Assembly (NCBI GenBank): GCA_046563655.1
Contig: CM102284.1
Coordinates: 7,626,001-7,690,000, forward strand
From: Yuukianura sp. NJ FZ-2021
Lineage: Eukaryota
Reading direction: 5' to 3'
DNA length: 64,000 bases
Shown: one piece after another, positions 7,809 through 48,100 of the stretch
Layout of the letters: each line of letters starts with the position of its first letter
How positions within the stretch are numbered: the stretch's first letter is position 1
Notes under the pieces: generated by a model
The model's database searches: none
What the model was told of the DNA's origin: nothing
What the model saw: only the letters and a program-made list of their open reading frames with translations
Position numbers and translations under genes: made by a program

Positions 7809-10347
7809 TCAAGGTTTGGCTCCTCCTCCTCCTCCTGAACCTGAAGTGAATCACACAAACCAATTTGTATCATTAATATTTATATTATATAAGTATATTG
7901 TATAAATATATATTTGACCTTACCCCGTCCACGACCTTTGCCCTTGAAAACTGACAAGATCAGGTTTTGACCTCGAGCGCCAGAAGGAGGTCCCTGTTTC
8001 CCCTGAGATCCAGTAGTTCCATAAACTAAGGCGGTGGCAGCTTGAGCCTTTTCGTATGCCGTTGACATGCGAGACCGATGGCGACTTCTTGCTGGAACTC
8101 CAGAGTGTGACATTGTGGATTTTTGACGATCTTGATCTTTATTACGTGCCGGTTCGCTATGAAGTGTTGTTAAGGGGCTGCCACAAGTAGGACGAAAGGG
8201 ACACTCTTCCACATGACGATTAGTGTCCAAATCTAGTTGCTGGAAGGCATCCGTGTCTCGATTGTAAAAGTAGTTAAAGTTGGCCACGATTACTGGAACG
8301 GGCAGGGCAATCGTCAATACTCCGCTAATGGCACAAAGAGCTCCAACAATCCTTCCGGCAAATCCAGTTGGAACCAAGTCACCGTATCCAATTGTTGTCT
8401 AAAATGGTGCAGAAGGTAAGGTTTTAGTTAAACTAAAGTTAACTTAAGTCAAAGTCAATTGTGCAGATTTGGATTACCATTGTGATAATGCCCCACCAAA
8501 AGGCATGTGGGATTGAGTGGAAGACGCGGACGGGTTCATTGAATTCTGCAAAGTACATTGCTGACGAAAACAAAACGATTCCAATGCCGAGAAAGAAAAT
8601 GAGCAGCCCAAGTTCACGCATTGAGGCTTGCAGCGTTTTGCCCAAAATCTTGAGTCCCTTGGAGTGTCTGAAAATGGCAAAGGTCACGGATTATGTCAAA
8701 GGTCAAATTATGAATCAAAAATTTAATTAACCTTGATAATTTGAAAATTCGGAACACTCGAACAAGTCGAATTACTCTTAGAACTGTCAATGTGGATCCC
8801 GGTGTGTTTCCCTTACGCAAACCTAAATTAAAAACAATCAAAATCAATCGTAGTTAACCAAAAATGTAATTCTTACCTGAGTTTGCACTCTGATCTTGTA
8901 CGCCGAAAGCAACGAATTGGAAGAAAAACGGCACAATCGCAACGAGGTCAATGATGTTGAGAATATTTTTGACAAATTTGATTTTGCTTGGTGAAGATAG
9001 AAATCGCATGAGAAGTTCCAGACAAAACCAGAAGACACAAATCGTTTCACAGAGGAAAAAGGAATCCCAGATGCCTTTGCGATTGACGATTCTCAAATCT
9101 CGTGGTTTGTTGAACGCTGGCAGCGTTTCTATGCAAAACAGCAGAATTGAGTAGAGGATGATAAAGATGGAAATTATGGAGACGATGCGCGCTTGTTTTG
9201 AACTCTCAGGGTACTCCAGTAGAAGCCAAATTTTTCGTAGATACTATCAAAATCAAAAATTCAACATTCAATTTTTTTTCAATTCATGAAAAAAAAATGT
9301 CGTACCAAATTTTTTGGCAAAGGTTTGTCATCGTCTTTGACAATTCCTTCATCTTCCAGGTAAGTTTTCATCACGTCTGTACCGAGGTCAAAGAATCGTA
9401 GCTCGTTTTCAAAAATTTTGAAGGGAACACCGGACGGACTAAAATGAAAACGAAATATTTTAGTGAAAAACGTAGTGAAAAATACGCGTCGTTTTTAATC
9501 TGTTTTGTAAACTTACCGGTTGAGGACACCACCACTTTGATAGTAGTACAAAATGGCTTCGAAGCATGTCCGATGTCGATCGAAAAAGTACTCGTTTCGT
9601 TTCGGATCGAAGTAGCGAAGTCGTCGTGTCGGATCACCTGAAATGAAATGGAGATTAGCTGACTGACTGATGATACAAATGATGGACAATACCTAAAAGT
9701 GTGTTTGGAAACTTCTTCAGTGTCCTAGCTTGCGTTTGATACCGATAACCAGAGACATTGATCGTGATGAGATTGCAGTCGTAGCTGTTGTGTACGATTC
9801 CAGGACCACCAACTTTCCGAATGTGGCGCAACAACTGTCGTTTCCGATGGACTGCAGCTTTCTGTCGAACTTGCTCTTCATTCAAATGTGGTTTCGCCTT
9901 GAGTTTGTATGACCACTTCTGGAATCTACCCCACTCTGGCCGGTAAGCTGGAATATACATACAGTCAACGTAGAAGTTCACAAAGTGATGAAACAGTTGC
10001 TTCCAGAAGTGGACAAACGTTTTCTTCGTTCCCGTGCAGGTCAATTCGGCTCGAATCTTGGGCCATTCACGCTTTAACTTTTCACAAACTCCGGTTGGTT
10101 TTTTGGCTACATCGTCTGAGTCTCCAGTACTTCCGGAATGTTGACTTTCTCTACTGTCGCTGGAAGCATTGCTGGCCGCATCATCGTCCGCTTTTTTCGA
10201 TGTTTCTTTTTTGGGAGGTTTATTGTCCCGAAGTTGCTGTTCTACTTGCTCGTGGCCGAACCCGGGTAGTGGGTTTGGATTACGACGGAACCTGTTCCTG
10301 GCTTCGTCATCGTTCTTCTTCTGCCCTTGGGCAGGCTTGCTTGCCAT
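7809..10347 (-). CDS. Shaker/Kv1-family voltage-gated potassium channel, divergent and compact
   Basis: T1 domain ([33 protein letters not shown]), S4 [23 protein letters not shown]4-S5 [16 protein letters not shown], pore WWGIITMTTIGYGD, S6 [20 protein letters not shown]. The last exon [10 protein letters not shown] is inferred. Confidence 0.92.
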
Positions 10348-13521: not shown

Positions 13522-14098
13522 GCAAACAACTTCCAGTGTTTTAGCACTTCAAAACAATGAAACCACTGCCCCACTTTAGAAATCCCAATTTATCTTAGGG
13601 GTTCGGTTGTAAATTCATCAAAATAATAGCCTAATCTTATGCGCAAAATAAACCAAAACTGTTTACTGATACAACAGGCAGAGAACGGTAAACAATCAAC
13701 GTTTTCATTGCATTTTTGAAGTCCTCAGATGTGGAGCCGTCCTAAAATCCATAAAAATGATGACTCAAAGAGTTATAAAAAAGAACTATTAGATTTATAA
13801 TTTAATTGCAGCTTAGCAGTTTCATCATGAAATTAAAAACGCCTATTGCTTTACTCTTTTCCAACTCAACAAGAGAACTTTTTGCTATTTTTGAAAAGTG
13901 CAAGGATGGATGAGATGAGTCATAGAAGACAGCAATTCACGAAACTTGGATTGACGTAATCGTTATCTGCTTCGTGTCTTATTCGTCTCTCGACTCGTGT
14001 ACTTTACCAAATACATAAGGAAGTTGGCCAACAAGTGGGGTTTGTTGGGGATGGGGTTTTATACTTAGTACGTACTGAATTCGTCCAATCGTCCTTCA

Positions 14099-17019
14099 CA
14101 GACCTCGGCAATTTTCGTTCATTTGTCGCTCCGCTTTACTCAGGTCTCGCTCAGAGCGAAAATTGCTGAGCGGAACGGAACGAGCGTCGAGCCATGCTTA
14201 GCGGAGCGATACTGAGCTGAGGGATAGTTTAGAAGGATGAGCGGAGCGGCCGTTGAGCGAAACGATGGTTTGAAAATGGAGATTACCACGTTGCCATGAC
14301 GACGTCATACGAGCATGCGGATCGAAATAAAAACAAAACATTACACTTTTCTTTGTAGGTCAAGGACCTTCGAATTCACTTCAGTTCACTTCTTCAAGTC
14401 TCTCGGAGAGGACAGTCACATCCTCCCATCGCTCTCTTCAATCTCCAAATTCACTGTTTTTTAAATTCTAAAACTAAAAGTACTTCGTCTCATCGCTCGG
14501 ATAATTCAACATGAGTTGCGGAGGCGGACGTGTAAGTTGTCCTTTGACAACTGATTTACTGGAAACATCAACCTGAACCGCAGGAGGGAATCAAAGGAAT
14601 TGCATAAGCATAACGGTTTCTCATTGTAGGTTTTCGGAGGCGGTGCTGGTTGTGGTGGCTGTCCACAACGCAATCCTTGTTGTGTAACATTTTAATTCAT
14701 TCATCTCGCGAGATCATCGTTTATACGAAGTAACGATTTTTGTGTTTTAGCCTCCACCGTGCTGCCCAGCTCCCAGGTTGACTTTGTGCTGTCCCGATCC
14801 TTGTCGACCCTGCTGCAGACCATGCTGTGTAAGTTACTTTTAAGTAGAATTCTTGGTATATTTTGTATTCTAACTTAACTTATAATTGATACAATTTAAT
14901 TTCTGCCTCTTTTGGTAGCCACCAGCTCCACAATGTTGTCCCAGGATGCCCGTCTTCCCGAAAGTTTGCTGCCCTCCACCAGTAAGTGCACATTTCTTAC
15001 GTTAGACGCGACATTCAAAACAAATCTTTTGATGTGTAAAGCGTTAATGAATGCCCTTCTAAATTCTAGTGCTGTGTAAGACCACACATCCAACTTTCGC
15101 TGGTGTTGGAGTACTTGATGAGGAGATTCGATTTTTGAAAGTATTTATTGCGGTTAGCTGTGCATTTGACTTCGCGTTTTTTTTTGTACTTTAGCCGGAT
15201 CCGTGCATTCGTCCTGGACGAAAATGCTTCATTCCTCCACCTTGCTGGTAACTTATTATTGCAAGTTCTTGGAAAATGGCATATCGCCATCCACTGTTCA
15301 TGTCGTTTATCAGATTTGGTTGTGTATCCTAACGTTTTTCTTCAAATTAAAGTCCACCTCCATGCTGCAAGAAGATGTGCCTAGGTGAGTGACTACAGTT
15401 TATGGAATAGATCGTTTCGTTGACTGTATTTTTTAAAGTTTGACCCAAGTTTTGTTTTAAAATTTTCAGTCGTGTCTCCACCGATTTGTCCGCCAAGATG
15501 CTGTCCAAGTATGTTTCTCAATTTAAAGTTATTGGGATGACATTTTGGCAATTTGCAAATCACTCTGTTAACTTGAATCCTTTCTCATTCTGTAGTTCCT
15601 TGTTGTCCGCCGTGTGGACCTGCCCTGGATCGTAAATACTTGAACATAAAGTTACTGTGGCTTTGATTTGAGATTTCAGTTGTCACTAAAAATTTTGGTG
15701 TATTTCCTTAGCCTGCTGCCCACGACCAGATCCAGTTCCATGTTGCCCGGATCGTAAGTTTAACTTTGTAATAAGATTTCCACTTCAAAAACACTTACAT
15801 ATTTTCTTGTATTCCAGCTTGCCGCCGCCGAACAATGAGCTGTTGCATGGATCCTTGTTGTCGTAAGTTTATTAGCAGCAGTGGAATTAAATTCTTAAGG
15901 TTCCTTATTCCGATTTTTTGAACATACAGCACCGCCAGCCATGATCGTGCGACCGATTCGTCACAGCTGCTGTCCTCCGCCGCCAAGAACTGGAAGAAAT
16001 TGCTGTGTAAGTTTTGAGCTTAAGTGGAGCTTAACCGGAATTAATCAGGATAACATAACACATCTAATGAATCGTAAATGAAGGTAACTAATGCTTGATT
16101 TATTTTAAAATAGCCAATTCCTTGCTGCAACCCCTTGCCGCCTGCCTGCATCATTGTGAAGCCATGCATTCCCCGTTGTGAAGGAAGCGATGTCTGCTGT
16201 CCGGTAAGCAATTAAAAATATACAGCATTTTCTCTAATTTAAGCAAAAGAAATAAGCTTTGTCGTTTGACAGCCGCCACCATTGTCATGCCCGGACCCGT
16301 GTGGATGCAGACCATCTTGCTGTGGAGCTGGCGCATGCCCTGTAACGAATCAATTACATTTCTCTTCCCATTTTTGGGAGTTCCATGACTGATCGTCATA
16401 TTTTTATTTATTTGTAGAAACCAATCTGCGTCAGCATAAAAGCCCCCACAAGCTGTTGTCCATCTCCGTGTTGCCCTCCTCCGCAGCCTCCGATGTGCTG
16501 CATTCCGAAGCCATGCTGCCCGGTAATTGACCTCCGAACTACTCAATTCATTCAAGGATTTCTTAATTACTGAATTGGTTTTACATTATTTTACAGCCCA
16601 AGCAAGAGAATAGCTGCTTCGTGTCAGTTACTCCTTGTCCACCGAAGTGCTGCCCCGGACCGTCGTGCTGCTAAGCCAAGGATTAGACGATGAAGACTGA
16701 AGTTACTCAACGCCACATCTACAAAAACATAGCCAAAGCATTTCTAAATTCATAGTCAAGAATCATTGTTCATTAACGTTAGATCTAGCCGAAAATAAAG
16801 TGTAAGAACTGCACTTGCAGTTGTTTTTTTTTAGGAATATCAAAATTCATGGATAATTTTCAGTTTAACTTCTATTATTACATAGGCCAAAACAGTACAA
16901 ATCTAAATTGTTGTAACTTTTACTTGCCAGAGCTGAGCGGAGGGAGGGTTTGCTGTATTACTTTGAGCGGAGCGGAACGGTGTTGGTGGATGACAGAGCG
17001 GAGCGATCGCCGAGGTCTG
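14099..17019. mobile_element. hAT-like non-autonomous element (11-bp TIRs) enclosing the Cys/Pro-rich gene
   Basis: CAGACCTCGGC at 14099-14109 and its exact reverse complement GCCGAGGTCTG at 17009-17019. CGCTCCGCT/GAGCGGAGCG subterminal repeats at about 14128-14260 and 16930-17005. Flanks GTCCTTCA and GTTCTTCT match 6/8. Confidence 0.6.
14511..16674 (+). CDS. Cys/Pro-rich protein, about 295 aa, 16 exons, no signal peptide
   Basis: Exons 14511-14531, 14630-14683, 14751-14828, 14919-14981, 15070-15075, 15195-15247, 15353-15384, 15470-15508, 15596-15631, 15712-15753, 15818-15862, 15930-16006, 16114-16203, 16273-16341, 16418-16522, 16597-16674. All introns are GT-AG, phases are consistent, and the 888-nt frame is open (MSCGGGR...KCCPGPSCC*). 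AATAAA at 16794. Confidence 0.9.
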
Positions 17020-17497
17020 GTTCTTCTTTAGGAGACTAACCAAGTTTCTTCCTTTCATCCTCACTCGCTCTCACTCCAACCAAACTGGTTCATCAGTTCA
17101 GTTCAGTAAACACTCACTTGACAATTGACCTCAAGACAAGTACGCAAAGAGAGGTTTCGAACAAGTAAGTTTTTTAAGTTGATCTTGGTTTGGTAGGTAT
17201 TAATTAAGTACTGTATCCTGAATCCTATTCTTTCAATCACATCATCGCCTCTAACCTAATCATCTGCTTGTAGTTGTATGAGTAATAATAACCACTGAAG
17301 TAAGGGAGAAACAGTAAACGAACGAAGTAATTCTAACAACAATTGGGAATCGGAATTGATTTTAGATTATCGACTTTTAATCAGTTATGCACGATTGTTA
17401 GATTACTCACGATTGCCGTGTAACAATTGTGGTTTATGTTCTGATAAAGTGTTTATTGACCTTTGACTTTGGTATTTACAGGACACGATTTACAAGG

Positions 17498-18094
17498 ATG
17501 GACAAGAAACCAGAAGTTGGATATGGTCAATACGGCGGTGAGATGCCACCACCTTATACAGCAGCGTATGGACAGCCTGGTCCAGTTGGTTTTGAGCCAC
17601 CACCAAACGTAGCTCCAGTTCCACCACCACCAGGTGGATTCGTCAATGCTCAGTCAATGTATGCCCAACAACAGGCCTATGCTGGTCAACAGGCTCCAAC
17701 AGTGCCAGGTTTGTCGAAATTATCTATTCTAAGTATTAATGGTAATCTTGGTAAATTCGTAACCTATTTCCTGTGTCTAGTTGTCCAAGTCGTCCAGTTT
17801 GCCAACTTGAGAAGCCGTTCAACGCGATTGACTTGTCCTGCATGTCGAGCGGATATCAGCACTCGCGTCAGTTACCGTACTGGGCGCTTCACCCATTTGG
17901 CAGCACTTGTGCTTTGCTTTGTGTTTTGCCCGATTTTCTGCATTCCATACTGCATGGAAGAGTGCCAGGATGCTGAACAGTAAGTGTTTAGTCAATTACT
18001 TCCGAACTTGATTTGTTGCGTGTTGATTAACAATTTATTTGTTAACAGCTACTGCCCGAACTGCCAGCAGTTCATCGGAATCTATCGTCGCTAA
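17498..18094 (+). CDS. LITAF-domain protein (3 coding exons: 17498-17708, 17781-17979, 18049-18094)
   Basis: Pro-rich N-terminus with PPPY motif, then CPACRADISTRV, hydrophobic LAALVLCFVFCPIFCIPYC, and HYCPNCQQFIGIYRR*. This is the CxxC..HxCxxC LITAF signature. Confidence 0.93.
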
Positions 18095-26553: not shown

Positions 26554-28155
26554 AAACTATATAAATTTAATTTATTAAACAGAATTCACAAACACCTGCC
26601 TAGGGCAGGTTGAAAAGGTTTAGAGTATATATTGAGAAAAGTTAGAGGTAAAAAATTTCGTCCAATCCTTTCCCCGGGGGAAGAGTGCCAAGGATTGATG
26701 CGGAGTTGCCACGTTGAATGGCGATGCTAATCCGTTGAAGCAAAAAGTTGGTGGATCGGAGTTCACCGGTGACCTCGGCAAGACGTTGACCAATTGACCT
26801 GATGAGAATTAGTCCTTCGGCTCCGAAGACCCCCGAAGTTTCAACAGCAATGATGGAGACGATGAATTGATGATTTAGGTCTTGATACACTTTGTGTTTC
26901 TGCAATTCAGCCAAAGCGGCAGGATAGCCACTTGAAGAAGAGGAAATGGAGAGGTACGAGTTGGCATAAGTGTCTCGGCAAGTGACGTCCCACACCAAAC
27001 AACGTCCAGTATTCCAAGGAATCAAAGTGATGCCGTCGGGGCGTTTTCCATCAGAACGAGAACAACCTGGAGGTTCTTTCAGGCTAGGGACTCCGGCTGT
27101 TTGAAAGGCTCGAGCAATAATATCGTTGATTGAACCATGTCTTGAGTGTCTTCCTGCACTTTTCGGACAACTCAGCCCGTGGAGACCGTCTTCGTTAACA
27201 GTTGCACCACAGCGACATTTGTGGGGTAGACATAAGTTGGTGCCAAGCCGCAAGGAGCACGAAATTCTGAAGCATTCGTTGGATAGAAGAGTCCCCAGTT
27301 GTGAAGAGGGTAGGGCCTTCAGCCAATCACCGGAATGAGCAGCAGCGGCAGCAATTAGTCTTGCTTTGTCAGTCAAAGTGGTGGAGTTGTTCAGCAGACT
27401 GGTGTAAATTTTCGATGACTTTAATATCTCCCATTCCTTCTGAACTTTGTGATTAGATGGAAAATCAAAATCGTTGGACCATTTGAAAGTTGCTAAGTCG
27501 TACGATGGATCGAAAGGCGATAGGTTACCAGGTAGGAAGGAGGTGATTAGGTCTGCGCAGCTAAAGATTGAAGCCAAAAAACAGAGCGTAGCGCAATCGT
27601 TAGCTTGGCGGATTCCCAAACCCCCTTGCGCCACCGGCAGAGATGTTTGAATCCAGGCATTTTCAGAAAGGCTTATGTTGAGAATTTTTTCCAAAACTTT
27701 ACGAAGAGAATCATCGTAGTCCTTCAGTAGGTCTTCTTCAAGAAATGAAGGTGCGCAGCGAAGGAAGTATGTCAGTCTTGGAATCGAAATTGAAGCTCTT
27801 AGTAAGAAGAAAGCCACGTGAGCCGGAAGAGCTAGCAGCTTAGACGAAAGTCTGTCGAAATCGTCGGTCTTAATCTTCAAAATTCGTCGTCCAGAAGCTT
27901 TGGATAATGGGGCTCCGAGTAGTTCGGCGTCTTCTTCATTGCAGACTCGTATATCAGGTGCGAACGAAAGAAATGAGCTAGTGATGGCTCTGGACTCCAT
28001 TTCATCGCCACCGATGACGATGATCTCACATTTCTGTGTGTTAAGTTGTAGGCCAAAAGATGCTGCGTTGGTGGTGATATGCTGCAGATACTTCAGGACT
28101 GTTTCCGGCTTGTCGGCTATGGTTGCGTCGTCGAGATACCATACGTTAAACTCTG
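26554..28155 (-). mobile_element. 5'-truncated CRE-like non-LTR retrotransposon (RT C-terminal half, Zn-knuckle and restriction-like endonuclease)
   Basis: Open frame 28155-26642 with WYLDD, GLQLN..KCE, LLGAP, SLPV.QGGLG, CRC..HGLSC, RH..IN, RPDG, WDVT, K..VY, AVETSG, QRGN. Candidate TSD AAATTTCGAAAAT at 26541-26553 and 28156-28168. Confidence 0.9.
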
Positions 28156-28923
28156 AAATTTCGAAAATTGTTTTAGATTTTTGAGAAATGAAGATCCGTA
28201 ACGAAGCGAGTCTTCCGGCGGCGGCAGAAATCGCTAAAAACTTGAATATTTTAAAGTTTTGTTGGAAAAAATTCCTTTTTTGTTTTGCTAAACGCCAGTT
28301 GAAAGTTAAACGCATTTAGTCTATGTATTTAATACAAAGGCACAATGTCTAAAATTTTTTATTTTTTATGTGACGTACAAGTTCTTTCGGCATTCTATTT
28401 TCCTCGACGTTTTTATTTAGTTCAGCGTATATTATTGTTGAATTAGTTAAGAAACATTGACTAAATACAATGAAAAAGTTCACGTATGAGTTAATAAACT
28501 TAATGAAACTTAAGCATGTAAAATGTGTGTGAAATTGAAAATTATTTAGTTCATGTTGCAATTTGATTCTTAATTCAATTGAATTGAATGGTAATTGCAA
28601 GATGCTGAGAGTCCAAAGTGTTAAACTTTGTTTTTGAAAAGATTGAATCAAAAATCATTCATATTTGGTCACCACATCATCATTTTTAGCAGACGCAAAA
28701 AATAGCTGTACCGTGTACGCTTGTTATCAGTAACAGAATTGATGATGTTGACATGTTTTGGGTGGCCTGACGAAAGCCAATGACATTCATTTAATATAGG
28801 AAGAGCTTACTATTATTCATACATTCAAGTTGTAAGTTCTAATCGGTTCTAGAAAGGTCAAACGTCAAGGAAAACTTGGTGCTTAAAAGTTGTTTACTTT
28901 TGGAACCTCGTGGACTGGATCAT

Positions 28924-41570: not shown

Positions 41571-42379
41571 TCACTTCTAAAAACAAAATGAAAGCAATTA
41601 AAATTTATGAATTCCCGAACAAAATTAAGTAAATTAATGAAACAAAGCCTAAATCGTGGAGCTTACCTTATCCTTGCTGTCTTTGTCCTTGTTGAAGAAT
41701 GACGTGATTTTGGCGAAAAAACTGGCAGAGTCCTTCTTCTCCGCCCCTGCTGGGCCTTTGGAAGGGCACTTGGGTTTCATCATCGGACAGTCCTTGACTT
41801 TGACTTCTGGACCCTTGCCTTTCCTGTCGTCAGAACGTCCACAGGAACTGCATTTACCGGATCCCTTGGGATACAAAATCATAAAATGAAAATTCTGATT
41901 TCTAGCTTCATCTTGGCTTAAAATTCGGAGCGTTCTTACCCCCGACCCAGATCCATTCCGACCTGTCTTGGAAATTGGCAGAATGTTGGCCCCAGAAGGA
42001 ACTGGATAGTTCTTTAGCGTTTTCCTTGGTGGATTGCAGAGCCAAGCGGGCTTGCAGTCTCCAGTATTGAAGCATGGCATCGGAGGACACTTTTCCTTTT
42101 CGCAATTGTCCGCTGGAGGCTTGTTGTTGTTACAGCGGTCCTTCAATCCGCCACACTGGAAACGGCAAACGTGTTAGCAATTGAGTTACTAGGAATAGCT
42201 TTTTACATGACTTACAATCATGCTCATGAGACTTCCTTTTCCTTTCGGATCGTCCTATATTCCAAGAAAATTAAAAAATCAAGTTAATCGTTAGTTCTTT
42301 ATCGTTAGAATTAGAAAATTGTGTAAGCAATTACCTTGCCGCTGGTTGCGGATGCCTTGCATGACGGTGGGGCACTCAT
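41571..42379 (-). CDS. Small Cys/Lys/Pro/Gly-rich orphan protein, about 167 aa (exons 42379-42335, 42254-42216, 42155-41940, 41864-41667, 41576-41571)
   Basis: All introns GT-AG and phase 0. Translation: MSAPPSCKASATSGK/DDPKGKGSLMSMI/CGGLKDRC..CEKEKCPPMPC../GSGKCSSC..KDKDSKDK/K*. Confidence 0.7.
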
Positions 42380-45126: not shown

Positions 45127-48100
45127 TTAGTACCCGCCTTGTGGATTTGGGTTATAATGCATCTGTTGTTGACCCGGTCCACGCATTCCCATTTGGTGTT
45201 GCTGCTGCATCATCATCTGCTGTCTCATGCGTTGCTGCGGTCCTTGACCCATCATGCCGGGTTGCTGTTGACCTTGGGTCATCATGCCTTGTTGCCCCTG
45301 ACCCATCATTCCAGGTTGTTGCTGACCTTGACCCATCATTCCAGGCTGCTGCTGACCCATCATTCCAGGTTGTTGTTGACCTTGCCCCATCATGCCAGCT
45401 TGCTGTTGACCCATCATGCCCGGTTGCTGACCTTGCCCCATCATTCCAGATTGCGGTTGGCCTTGCCCCATCATTCCAGATTGCTGTTGGCCTTGACCCA
45501 TCATTCCAGATTGCTGTTGACCCTGATTCATTATTCCAGGTTGCTGCTGACCTTGGCCCATCATCACTTGTTGCTGTGCCCCTTGACCCATCATTCCTGC
45601 TTGCTGCCCCATTTGATTCATTCCACCCATCCCTTGCTGAACTCCGACCATTTGACCCGGTTGACCTTGCCCCATTTGTCCTAAAAATTATAAAATACAT
45701 CAGTATATTACATATTATATAGTACATATGTATTAAAATTTAGTAATGTGTAATTTAGTAACTGATGTGTAATTGTGATAACTCACCTTGCCCTTGAACC
45801 ATTTGACCTTGCATTTGACCCGTCATATTCCCTTGTGACATTTGACCCGGCATGTTGGGTCTCCCGTAAGCCGCTTGCATAGGCCCGCCCATCCCTTGCT
45901 GTTGTTGTGGTCCTCCTTGCATGAACTGTGCATTTCCCCTTGGTCCCATCGGTCTATTTCCTGCTCCCCCGAAATTCATGTCCTGTTGACCCGGTCCACG
46001 GGGCCCGCCCATCATCTGCATTTGACCTGGTTGTTGTTGTGGATTCATCATAGGTCCAGCTCCTTGTTGGACAGGGACAAGACCAGGAGTCGGCTGTTGC
46101 CCAGGGCCCATTCCTCCCATGCCCGCTTGATTGTTGTAACCATAATTCTGGTTCATTCCTAACAAAACATAATGCTTCTTTTAGAAAATCCAGTTCCAGA
46201 TCCAATTCTTAAAAATGAGGAAGTTAGAAGAACGCTAAAAACGTTAGTAAAAACGTAATTATTTGCTAGATACCCTGAGATTGTTGCATTTGTTGCTGTT
46301 GTTGTTGCATCATGGCAGCATTCGGCGGTCCTGCTTGGAATCCAGCTTGTCCAGGATTGGGCATTTGCCCTGGCGGAGGTTGTTGCTGACCACCGGGACC
46401 CTTCAACTGTTGACGAAGAATTCCAGGACCATGTCTAGGCCCTGCACCTCCAGGGCCCCCCGGAGGCCCTTGAGGAAACTGTTGAAACTGGTTTGGCCCA
46501 CCAGGAGGTACAGTTCGAGCTCTTAGGAGATTGTGCAGTGCTGCTTTTGGTGATTGGTTTATCCTGGGTCCAGGCGGCACTATAAAACAAAACAAGGTTT
46601 TCAAAAGTTTTTCACAAATTGTTAAATAATTTCAAAATTTTGAATTTTGAGTTACCTTGACCAGGTTGTGGTGGATAGTAAGGTTGTTGCGGAGGTTGTT
46701 GTTGTGGTGGCTGCTGCTGGGGCTGTCCATTGTAACCCCATTGGGGTGGTCCACCTTGATAGTTTGGCGGCGGCGGTTGATTTCCAGTCGGTCCTCCGGC
46801 CATTGGATTGTGCGGTCCACCAGGAAACTGTCCGCTCTGAATTTCATCATTTACAACTTTCATTTAGAATATCATTTAGAAATTGAGAATTTAGATTTCC
46901 GAATCTAAAATGCAACTTAAATGCAGAAGTTTTCATTTCCTAAGTTCAAAATCTAGAGAATTAACAAAAGAATGGCTTACTCCAAGTTGGGTTCCAATCG
47001 CAGGCGGATTTTGAATTGGAACATGCTGCTGCTGCTGTTGTTGCTGTTGAGCTTGCGCGGCAGCTGCTTGTGCCTGGGCTATTTTCTGTTGTTCCTGTTG
47101 CGCCTTCGTGAGTCGTTTCTTCCTGGGTAGTTTCGGTTTTGTCACTTTCGGAATCGGACCTCTCGGGCTCTGATCCGACATCATGGAAATAGGAGTGTCC
47201 GGTTTCAGATTAATTTCTTCTCGAATGTGAACTTCCGGTTTGAGGTCAATTTCTTCCGGTGGAAGAGGAACTGGTTCTAAAAAGTGCGTAAATGGTTTGA
47301 CCATGTTATGCGTATGAAACTTATTGAGACGATGAGCTTCTTCATAGCGAAGTGGCTTGCGTTCCATCTTGACAGCTCCGAACCACGACCATGACAGCGG
47401 AGCTGGATGTCGCTGACATTCCAGAATTTCCCAAGGACTTACTCGCTGTTTCTCCCAAACTTGAAGGCCCTAGTAAAGAGTAAAACCATCTTTAAATTTA
47501 AAACAAGTAAGAGCACTGGAAAATGGGGAAATCGCTGATTCTGGACAAAAAGCATGAAAAAGACATAGCATCTTTGGATAGAACGAAATTTTGAGAAAGT
47601 ATTTTGAAATTTACTCACCGGCTTTTTGTCAACATATTCAAAAGACTGGACACGATTCCCTTTGGAGTCGACAATAGTTGACGTCGACTGCGTGACAACA
47701 ATTTCCGCAAAAACTCTTGAAAATGGGAGGAGTTGACGCAGGGGTTTGATTGATTCTGAATCTCTATCGGTTAATTCCTTCTTCAATTTCTTGATTAAGT
47801 TCAAATTCTGTTTTCTGACTTCCTCCACACGATCACCAGCTTCTGTCACTTGAGTCGAGTGGACCAACGCTGTCACCATGTCCACAACGGTGAAGAAAAC
47901 GTCACTGAAAAGTTAATCAAAGCATATGTCAATATTATACCAGACAAAATTCAGTTCGAGATTTGTCATTGATGGCACAAACAAAACAATGATATGGTTT
48001 CTGAGTTCCGTTCAACCAATCAACGGGCAGCATTCAAAACCTGACAGAATCCAGCTCGACCAATTAAAATCGATGGTTGGAATGAAAAATCTGCAAACCT

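Follow-up and report, generated by a model that had tools for sequence, protein, structure and literature searches.

A 64,000-nucleotide stretch of contig CM102284.1 from Yuukianura sp. NJ FZ-2021 (assembly GCA_046563655.1, positions 7,626,001 to 7,690,000 of the forward strand), referred to here as the window, contains a predicted gene for a protein extremely rich in cysteine and proline (the Cys/Pro gene). The gene lies on the + strand at 14511-16674, where sixteen exons of 6 to 105 nt, rebuilt from coordinates, splice to an 888-nt coding sequence (CDS) for 295 amino acids (aa). The reading frame opens with the ATG at 14511 and continues unbroken to a TAA whose last base is 16674. This model had been proposed in an initial annotation, with no exon above 105 nt, and every one of its figures was reproduced from the coordinates. 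The exons are as follows.

14511-14531, + strand: coding part of exon 1, 21 nt, holding the start codon; donor GTAAGT
14630-14683, + strand: exon 2, 54 nt, phase 0-0
14751-14828, + strand: exon 3, 78 nt, phase 0-0
14919-14981, + strand: exon 4, 63 nt, phase 0-0
15070-15075, + strand: exon 5, a micro-exon of 6 nt encoding Cys-Cys, phase 0-0, with introns of 88 and 119 nt on either side
15195-15247, + strand: exon 6, 53 nt, phase 0-2
15353-15384, + strand: exon 7, 32 nt, phase 2-1; acceptor ATTAAAG
15470-15508, + strand: exon 8, 39 nt, phase 1-1
15596-15631, + strand: exon 9, 36 nt, phase 1-1
15712-15753, + strand: exon 10, 42 nt, phase 1-1
15818-15862, + strand: exon 11, 45 nt, phase 1-1
15930-16006, + strand: exon 12, 77 nt, phase 1-0, bringing the phase back to 0
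16114-16203, + strand: exon 13, 90 nt, phase 0-0
16273-16341, + strand: exon 14, 69 nt, phase 0-0
16418-16522, + strand: exon 15, 105 nt, phase 0-0, the longest exon and the main query for database searches
16597-16674, + strand: coding part of exon 16, 78 nt including the TAA stop

The exons have a mean length of 55.5 nt, the shortest being 6 nt and the longest 105 nt, and one intron occurs per 59 coding nt. This intron density is the truly unusual feature of the gene. Eleven of the 14 internal exons have lengths divisible by three and fall exactly into the phase blocks described initially (phase 0-0, exons 2-5 and 13-15; phase 1-1, exons 8-11). The frame shifts between these symmetric blocks are carried by exons 6, 7 and 12 (53, 32 and 77 nt). 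The binomial probability of at least 11 symmetric exons among 14, with p = 1/3, is 6.9e-4. The longest in-frame open reading frame (ORF) of the gene has at most 51 codons, and the gene is indeed missed by the ORF track. Across the locus only one stop-to-stop ORF reaches 110 aa; it is antisense (16151..16585) and has no Pfam family at or above the cut-off.

The predicted product contains 74 Cys (25%) and 87 Pro (29.5%), in agreement with the earlier hand counts, and includes 27 CC, 20 CCP, 14 PCC and 12 CPP motifs. It has neither Trp nor Tyr, one His and four Phe. The protein is approximately 31 kDa with a computed pI of 8.5 (29 Arg+Lys vs. 10 Asp+Glu), and its N-terminus is Gly/Cys-rich. Cysteines occur almost wholly as vicinal pairs, with 27 CC compared to one C-x-C. 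These pairs are spaced by proline-rich stretches of 2-22 residues, and the step from one CC to the next is five residues in 7 of 26 intervals. The anatomy of the gene and the composition of its product are established. Kyte-Doolittle hydropathy, the single measure used, revealed no hydrophobic N-terminus or transmembrane-like stretch (highest 15-residue mean 1.29; first 30 residues about 0). This agrees with the absence of a signal peptide reported in the initial annotation and implies that the product should stay cytoplasmic. Neither tandem nor long direct repeats were found in the DNA beneath the repetitive protein, indicating that the protein pattern does not come from recent DNA duplication.

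We regard it as highly likely that the Cys/Pro gene is real. All 15 introns are GT..AG introns of 64-119 nt with GTAAGT-like donors, and their acceptors are pyrimidine-rich YAG with the exception of the purine-rich acceptor before exon 7. The G+C content is 0.581 in exons and 0.321 in introns, and the step falls exactly at the predicted boundaries. Within 14511-16674, all 26 copies of TGYTGY, which encodes Cys-Cys, lie wholly within predicted exons, in frame with the spliced CDS, and none occurs in the 1276 nt of intron. The density of this dicodon is 29.3 per kb in exons, compared to 2.2 per kb on the remaining + strand of the window. Whole in-frame CC dicodons were read from the per-exon peptides of 14 exons, for which the chance of frame agreement is about (1/3)^13. 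Retention of any intron would either end translation at an in-frame stop or shift the frame. The ranking of Pro codons is similar to that in conserved ORFs of the window.

Motifs that span the splice junctions provide further evidence. The heptad CC-x3-CC is present in seven copies (CCPPPCC three times, CCPIPCC twice, CCMDPCC and CCPSPCC). Five of the seven arise only by splicing, at junctions 2/3, 4/5, 6/7, 8/9 and 12/13, and the other two are contiguous within exons 11 and 15. The exon 6/7 junction also generates the 27th Cys-Cys pair. Exon 5 has good splice sites (acceptor TTCTAG, donor GTAAGA), and its inclusion completes a CCPPPCC heptad. Since splice junctions recreate a heptad that is also encoded contiguously, these motifs support even exon 5, with its 6 nt, and the junction of exons 6 and 7. 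The open frame by itself is little proof, because automatic exon chaining with other site choices gave many alternative open chains in this stop-poor composition. Exon 7 was absent from the automatic chaining because its acceptor is purine-rich.

Signals for transcription and translation are located on both sides of the coding region:

14381..14387, + strand: Initiator-like (Inr-like) TCAGTTC, with the putative transcription start at the A at 14383
14383..14510, + strand: putative 5' untranslated region, 128 nt, ATG-free, with an in-frame TAA 9 nt 5' of the start codon
14410..14415, + strand: GGACAG, resembling a downstream promoter element (DPE), at +28..+33 from the putative start
16794..16799, + strand: AATAAA polyadenylation signal, beginning 120 nt past the stop

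The TCAGTTC at 14381 is the sole TCAGTY on the + strand of 14201-14520, an interval in which no TATA box was found. It resembles the Inr consensus, and GGACAG matches, at canonical spacing, the DPE consensus, RGWYV(T). The start-codon context, CAAC-ATG, also agrees with the consensus for start sites. Only one AATAAA or ATTAAA, the copy at 16794, is present in 16675-17000. Transcription most likely runs from about 14383 to just beyond 16799, and the locus is compact and self-contained, with a transcription unit that spans about 2.4 kb. This is very likely an intact, stand-alone protein-coding gene. The combination of a TCAGT-type initiator, a DPE and short introns suggests an arthropod-like gene type.

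The upstream neighbour encodes a Peptidase_M16 domain and ends at about 13520, leaving approximately 0.7-0.9 kb of intergenic DNA before the Cys/Pro gene. Two introns of this neighbour, read by eye, are about 80-95 nt. The downstream neighbour (17402-17983, + strand) encodes a LITAF-like zinc ribbon (PF10601, E=1.6e-15), and a perfect (TCAGT)x3 tandem at 17093-17107 is located at its putative start site. Other genes in the window are of housekeeping type and include MED12, Sel1-repeat, Peptidase_M48, RING and Kv channel genes and an ATP-grasp succinyl-CoA-ligase-like exon. Intron lengths in the neighbours are similar to those of the Cys/Pro gene, but their exons are far longer. For example, MED12 exons measure 560 nt or more, and about 100 nt separate the high-scoring segment pairs, compared to the mean exon of 55.5 nt in the Cys/Pro gene. 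A search with one MED12 exon gave five fragments, with 68% identity at best.

The 10-mer GAGCGGARCG is clustered at 14127-14264 and 16930-17005. These clusters hold 11 of its 13 matches in the window (at most one mismatch), where 2.7 matches were expected and no shuffle reached 13. Each lies about 85-255 nt upstream of a TCAGT-type initiator, the first cluster before the Cys/Pro gene and the second before the LITAF-like gene. We know of no described motif that matches GAGCGGARCG. The clusters may bind a promoter-proximal factor common to both genes, or may represent a boundary element. A mobile-element origin of the gene was also considered, given a flanking 14-nt inverted pair (14099-14112 / 17006-17019), and was rejected. 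Neither the inverted pair nor the GAGCGGARCG clusters recur elsewhere in the window, and blastn finds no extended similarity between the two flanks. These results suggest that the flanking clusters are promoter-proximal motifs rather than transposon ends.

Four further features were observed elsewhere in the window. Rfam K_chan_RES, an RNA editing signal of potassium channels, is matched over its full length at 8279-8392 on the - strand (83.3 bits; gathering score 51), within the pore/S6 exon (Ion_trans) of the Kv channel. A long Gln/Gly/Met-rich low-complexity coding stretch with QQPGMMGQG repeats is located at 45127-46631 on the - strand, with several open reading frames on each strand. The MED12-like gene, the conserved part of which lies at 47-54 kb, presumably has its C-terminal tail in this stretch. 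A 557-aa open frame at 26642-28315 on the - strand matches no Pfam family at E≤0.001 and, judged by eye, may resemble a retroelement ORF in its C-terminal portion. A 174-aa open frame at 41649-42173 on the - strand, rich in Cys, Lys and Pro with CPP and KCP motifs, has no real Pfam family and may be a further low-complexity Cys-rich gene.

Relatives of the Cys/Pro product were searched for with single exons (≤51 aa) or an exon alignment; these queries are of low complexity, and the searches give weak negatives for the full protein. Exon 15, as a 51-aa stop-to-stop ORF (region 1-40), gave two candidates among longer proteins, neither of them significant. As a 35-aa query in phmmer against 1.84 billion representatives, it gave no match at E≤0.001. 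Its 592 pattern matches in metagenome contigs included none that was confirmed. The alignment of 14 exon translations gave 1536 candidates, none at E≤0.001, and Pfam returned no family at E≤1 for six single exons and two exon-containing ORFs. In a language-model protein atlas, the nearest clusters to exon 15 were a KAP (keratin-associated protein) 5-8-like cluster (0.84), a KAP 3-1-like cluster (0.79) and a small Cys/Gly repeat protein (0.79). All three scores are lower than the atlas level of 0.9, and they serve as leads only; the KAP clusters are from chordates. Exon 13 had no usable match in the atlas. No described arthropod Cys/Pro micro-exon protein or sperm protein of this kind was found in the open-access library searched.

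The product may be an intracellular, ultra-high Cys/Pro structural cross-linker made from a constitutively spliced transcript, a reading to which we give an even chance. In the proposed mechanism, proline would keep the chain extended, unfolded and stiffened. Vicinal cysteines would pair poorly with one another and leave many exposed thiol pairs, so that intermolecular disulfide or zinc-bridged links would be expected. Such links would harden an intracellular structure. Hair KAPs, SMCP of the mitochondrial capsule in mammalian sperm and the Mst(3)CGP proteins of the Drosophila sperm tail share the same mode of cross-linking. The product is probably analogous, rather than homologous, to these proteins.

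Among these families, the ultra-high-sulfur KAPs such as KAP5 share with the product a high Cys content, CC doublets at a five-residue period, the lack of a signal peptide and the presumed disulfide cross-linking mechanism, and they supply the two KAP-like atlas leads for exon 15 (0.84 and 0.79). KAP genes, however, are intronless and form tandem arrays in mammals, whereas the Cys/Pro gene is divided into 16 exons and is the sole CCP-dense locus within the 64 kb; CCP-coding sequence is dense only at 14-16 kb of the window. The single exons tested matched no Pfam keratin family, and the resemblance is compositional. SMCP is also Cys/Pro-rich, cytoplasmic and basic, and has PCCPP-type motifs like those seen here. 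It is shorter and restricted to mammals with an essentially unsplit coding region, whereas the Cys/Pro product is longer (295 aa) and its coding region is divided into 16 exons.

The Mst(3)CGP proteins (Mst84D, Mst87F and Mst98C) are small-residue, Cys-rich, intracellular sperm-tail proteins of an arthropod, and the N-terminus of the Cys/Pro product is likewise Gly/Cys-rich. Their defining Cys-Gly-Pro repeat is not present here, with one CGP in 295 aa, and the gene architecture is very unlike theirs. PMC3439415 describes a 12-nt translational control element (TCE), ACATCNAAATTT, at +28 of the Mst(3)CGP transcript. No match to ACATCNAAATTT with at most two mismatches was found in 13592-15023. 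A look-alike identified by eye at 14443-14452 (8/10) was rejected, as it sits at +61 rather than +28. In the window as a whole, TTCAAAATTT-like words are enriched, at 20-24 kb and elsewhere, with 107 matches to the TCE pattern (≤2 mismatches) compared to 64.8 expected. This excess seems to come from low-complexity repeats of the FQKF/FSKF type at about 21.6-23.8 kb, not from promoters.

We infer a cross-linking role from these comparisons and, as a tentative guess, name the male germ line as the likeliest site of expression. The initial annotation had suggested sperm structural, KAP-like or metal-binding proteins, guesses that rest on composition. The Mst84D/Mst87F comparison is weakened by the single CGP and the missing TCE, and metal binding by the lack of a metal-response element in the promoter and the single C-x-C, discussed below.

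The splicing of the gene can be considered from its introns. In PMC9225289, splice sites flanking introns below 200-250 nt are described as being paired across the intron, with the nearest donor or acceptor preferred. All introns here (64-119 nt) are below that limit, which predicts constitutive inclusion. We infer that the gene is expressed and that all 16 exons are most likely included constitutively through intron-definition splicing, which would also explain the tolerance of a 6-nt exon.

Several points weigh against a constitutively spliced, intracellular cross-linker. Its function is argued from composition alone, and the analogous families are intron-poor, so that the analogy leaves the architecture of the gene unexplained. 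No testis-specific sequence sign was observed: the Drosophila TCE is absent, there is one CGP, and no tandem paralogues occur in the 64 kb. The 6-nt exon 5 is the least certain exon of the predicted set, and exon 7 has the weakest acceptor of the gene, the purine-rich ATTAAAG. TGC makes up 59% of Cys codons compared to 25% in the reference ORFs, which contain only 36 Cys codons. Finally, the single-exon and exon-alignment searches found no relatives, a weak negative from short, low-complexity queries.

One alternative is variation of the kind described for schistosome micro-exon genes (MEGs). The exon blocks 2-5 and 13-15 (phase 0) and 8-11 (phase 1) would be skipped combinatorially to yield Cys/Pro proteins of varied length. 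Such skipping was proposed in the initial annotation, and the phases do permit it, as 11 of the 14 internal exons are multiples of three (P=6.9e-4 under the 1/3 null). Exon edges share one grammar (..CC|P.., ..P|P..), and most skips would restore legal motifs. Symmetric exons allow skipping-based variation in schistosome MEGs, according to PMC4015677 and PMC5825161. However, short flanking introns of 64-119 nt with strong sites disfavour skipping through nearest-site pairing, and intron definition favours constitutive inclusion. In addition, duplication of a repeat-unit exon would leave symmetric exons without any alternative splicing.

The similarity to MEGs noted initially holds for exon symmetry and is otherwise limited. 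Both have many very short exons, symmetric exons in strong excess and a repetitive product that is probably unstructured. According to PMC5825161, about 80% of the MEG coding region lies in symmetric exons of 6-36 bp, and the products are almost always secreted or membrane-anchored. In the Cys/Pro gene, the internal symmetric exons together make up 627 of 888 nt (70.6%), but those of at most 36 nt (6 and 36 nt) account for 42 of 888 nt (4.7%). Its exons are mostly 39-105 nt, its introns are short and arthropod-like, and hydropathy indicates no signal peptide, hydrophobic N-terminus or membrane anchor. The gene thus falls outside the schistosome MEG definition, and MEG-like variation is improbable in our assessment.

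It is also unlikely that the product is a metallothionein-like cytosolic metal binder or buffer, in which the 74 thiols would chelate Zn, Cu or Cd. A Cys content of 25%, the lack of Trp and Tyr, the near absence of other aromatic residues and His (four Phe, one His) and a predicted cytosolic location are points of likeness to metallothioneins. However, the cysteines are mainly CC doublets rather than C-x-C or C-x-x-C clusters (one C-x-C compared to 27 CC), and 29.5% Pro and a length of 295 aa are atypical of metallothioneins. The metal-response element, TGCRCNC, has no match on either strand of 13781-14511, upstream of the start codon, and occurs at 0.30 per kb window-wide.

A non-functional locus is clearly improbable. 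The gene would then be unexpressed or decaying, or the model would be partly wrong, for example with exon 5 or exon 7 unused and the product truncated or shifted in frame. The lack of relatives in single-exon searches and the poor exon 7 acceptor are compatible with this explanation, as is the low-complexity C/T-rich DNA, which is stop-poor in any frame and allows many alternative open chains. However, sixteen composition-matched segments, each with consensus-site boundaries, all lie in one frame, and for the 14 exons that hold whole in-frame CC dicodons a chance match of frames has a probability of about (1/3)^13. The sharp G+C step between exons and introns, the identity of motifs across junctions to those within exons, and the presence of promoter, start and polyadenylation signals also argue against a non-functional locus.

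The gene could alternatively be an independent, non-flatworm micro-exon gene. Combinatorial skipping of two phase-locked cassette blocks (exons 2-5 and 13-15 in phase 0, exons 8-11 in phase 1) would set how long a matrix cross-linker is and what thiol valency it has, and this protein might be an insect sperm component of the crystallomitin type. We consider this very doubtful. Insect sperm mitochondrial crystals contain proline-rich polypeptides that are SDS-insoluble via disulfides, as described for crystallomitin in PMC2111423, and the Drosophila paracrystalline material has been identified as S-Lap proteins in PMC6388916. A link between crystallomitin and the Cys/Pro gene is speculation only. 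A secreted or extracellular matrix protein of the eggshell, cuticle or silk type, with a missed signal-peptide exon upstream, is most improbable: many Cys- or Pro-rich structural proteins of invertebrates are secreted, and exon 2 begins in phase 0 and could accept another first exon, but the Inr/DPE promoter lies immediately 5' of exon 1, an in-frame TAA with no AG in between precedes the ATG by 9 nt, and no candidate exon was noticed, without a systematic search, in the 0.7-0.9 kb of intergenic DNA.

For the intracellular, constitutively spliced Cys/Pro cross-linker proposed here, the repeated motifs also carry information on intron history. The two CCPIPCC copies are identical at 19 of 21 nt. 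A phase-1 intron splits one of them (exon 8/9) and a phase-0 intron the other (exon 12/13), so that the copies are cut at different motif positions. As the copies are cut at different places and in different phases, not all introns were inherited by duplication of one exon-intron unit. This suggests that some introns were gained, or slid, after the repeats had formed.

If expressed, the Cys/Pro gene would mark an annotation blind spot. With ORFs of at most 51 codons, no Pfam match and no relatives found, it would be missed by both ORF-based and homology-based methods. It would also represent a convergent, non-mammalian case of the ultra-high-sulfur/proline cross-linker proteins, and its architecture would set it apart from all of these, with an intron for every 59 coding nt amid neighbours whose exons are ten times longer. 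The gene offers a compact natural test case for the splicing of very small exons by intron definition, with 6 nt of exon between introns of 88 and 119 nt, and its two CCPIPCC copies bear on how introns are acquired in repeat proteins.

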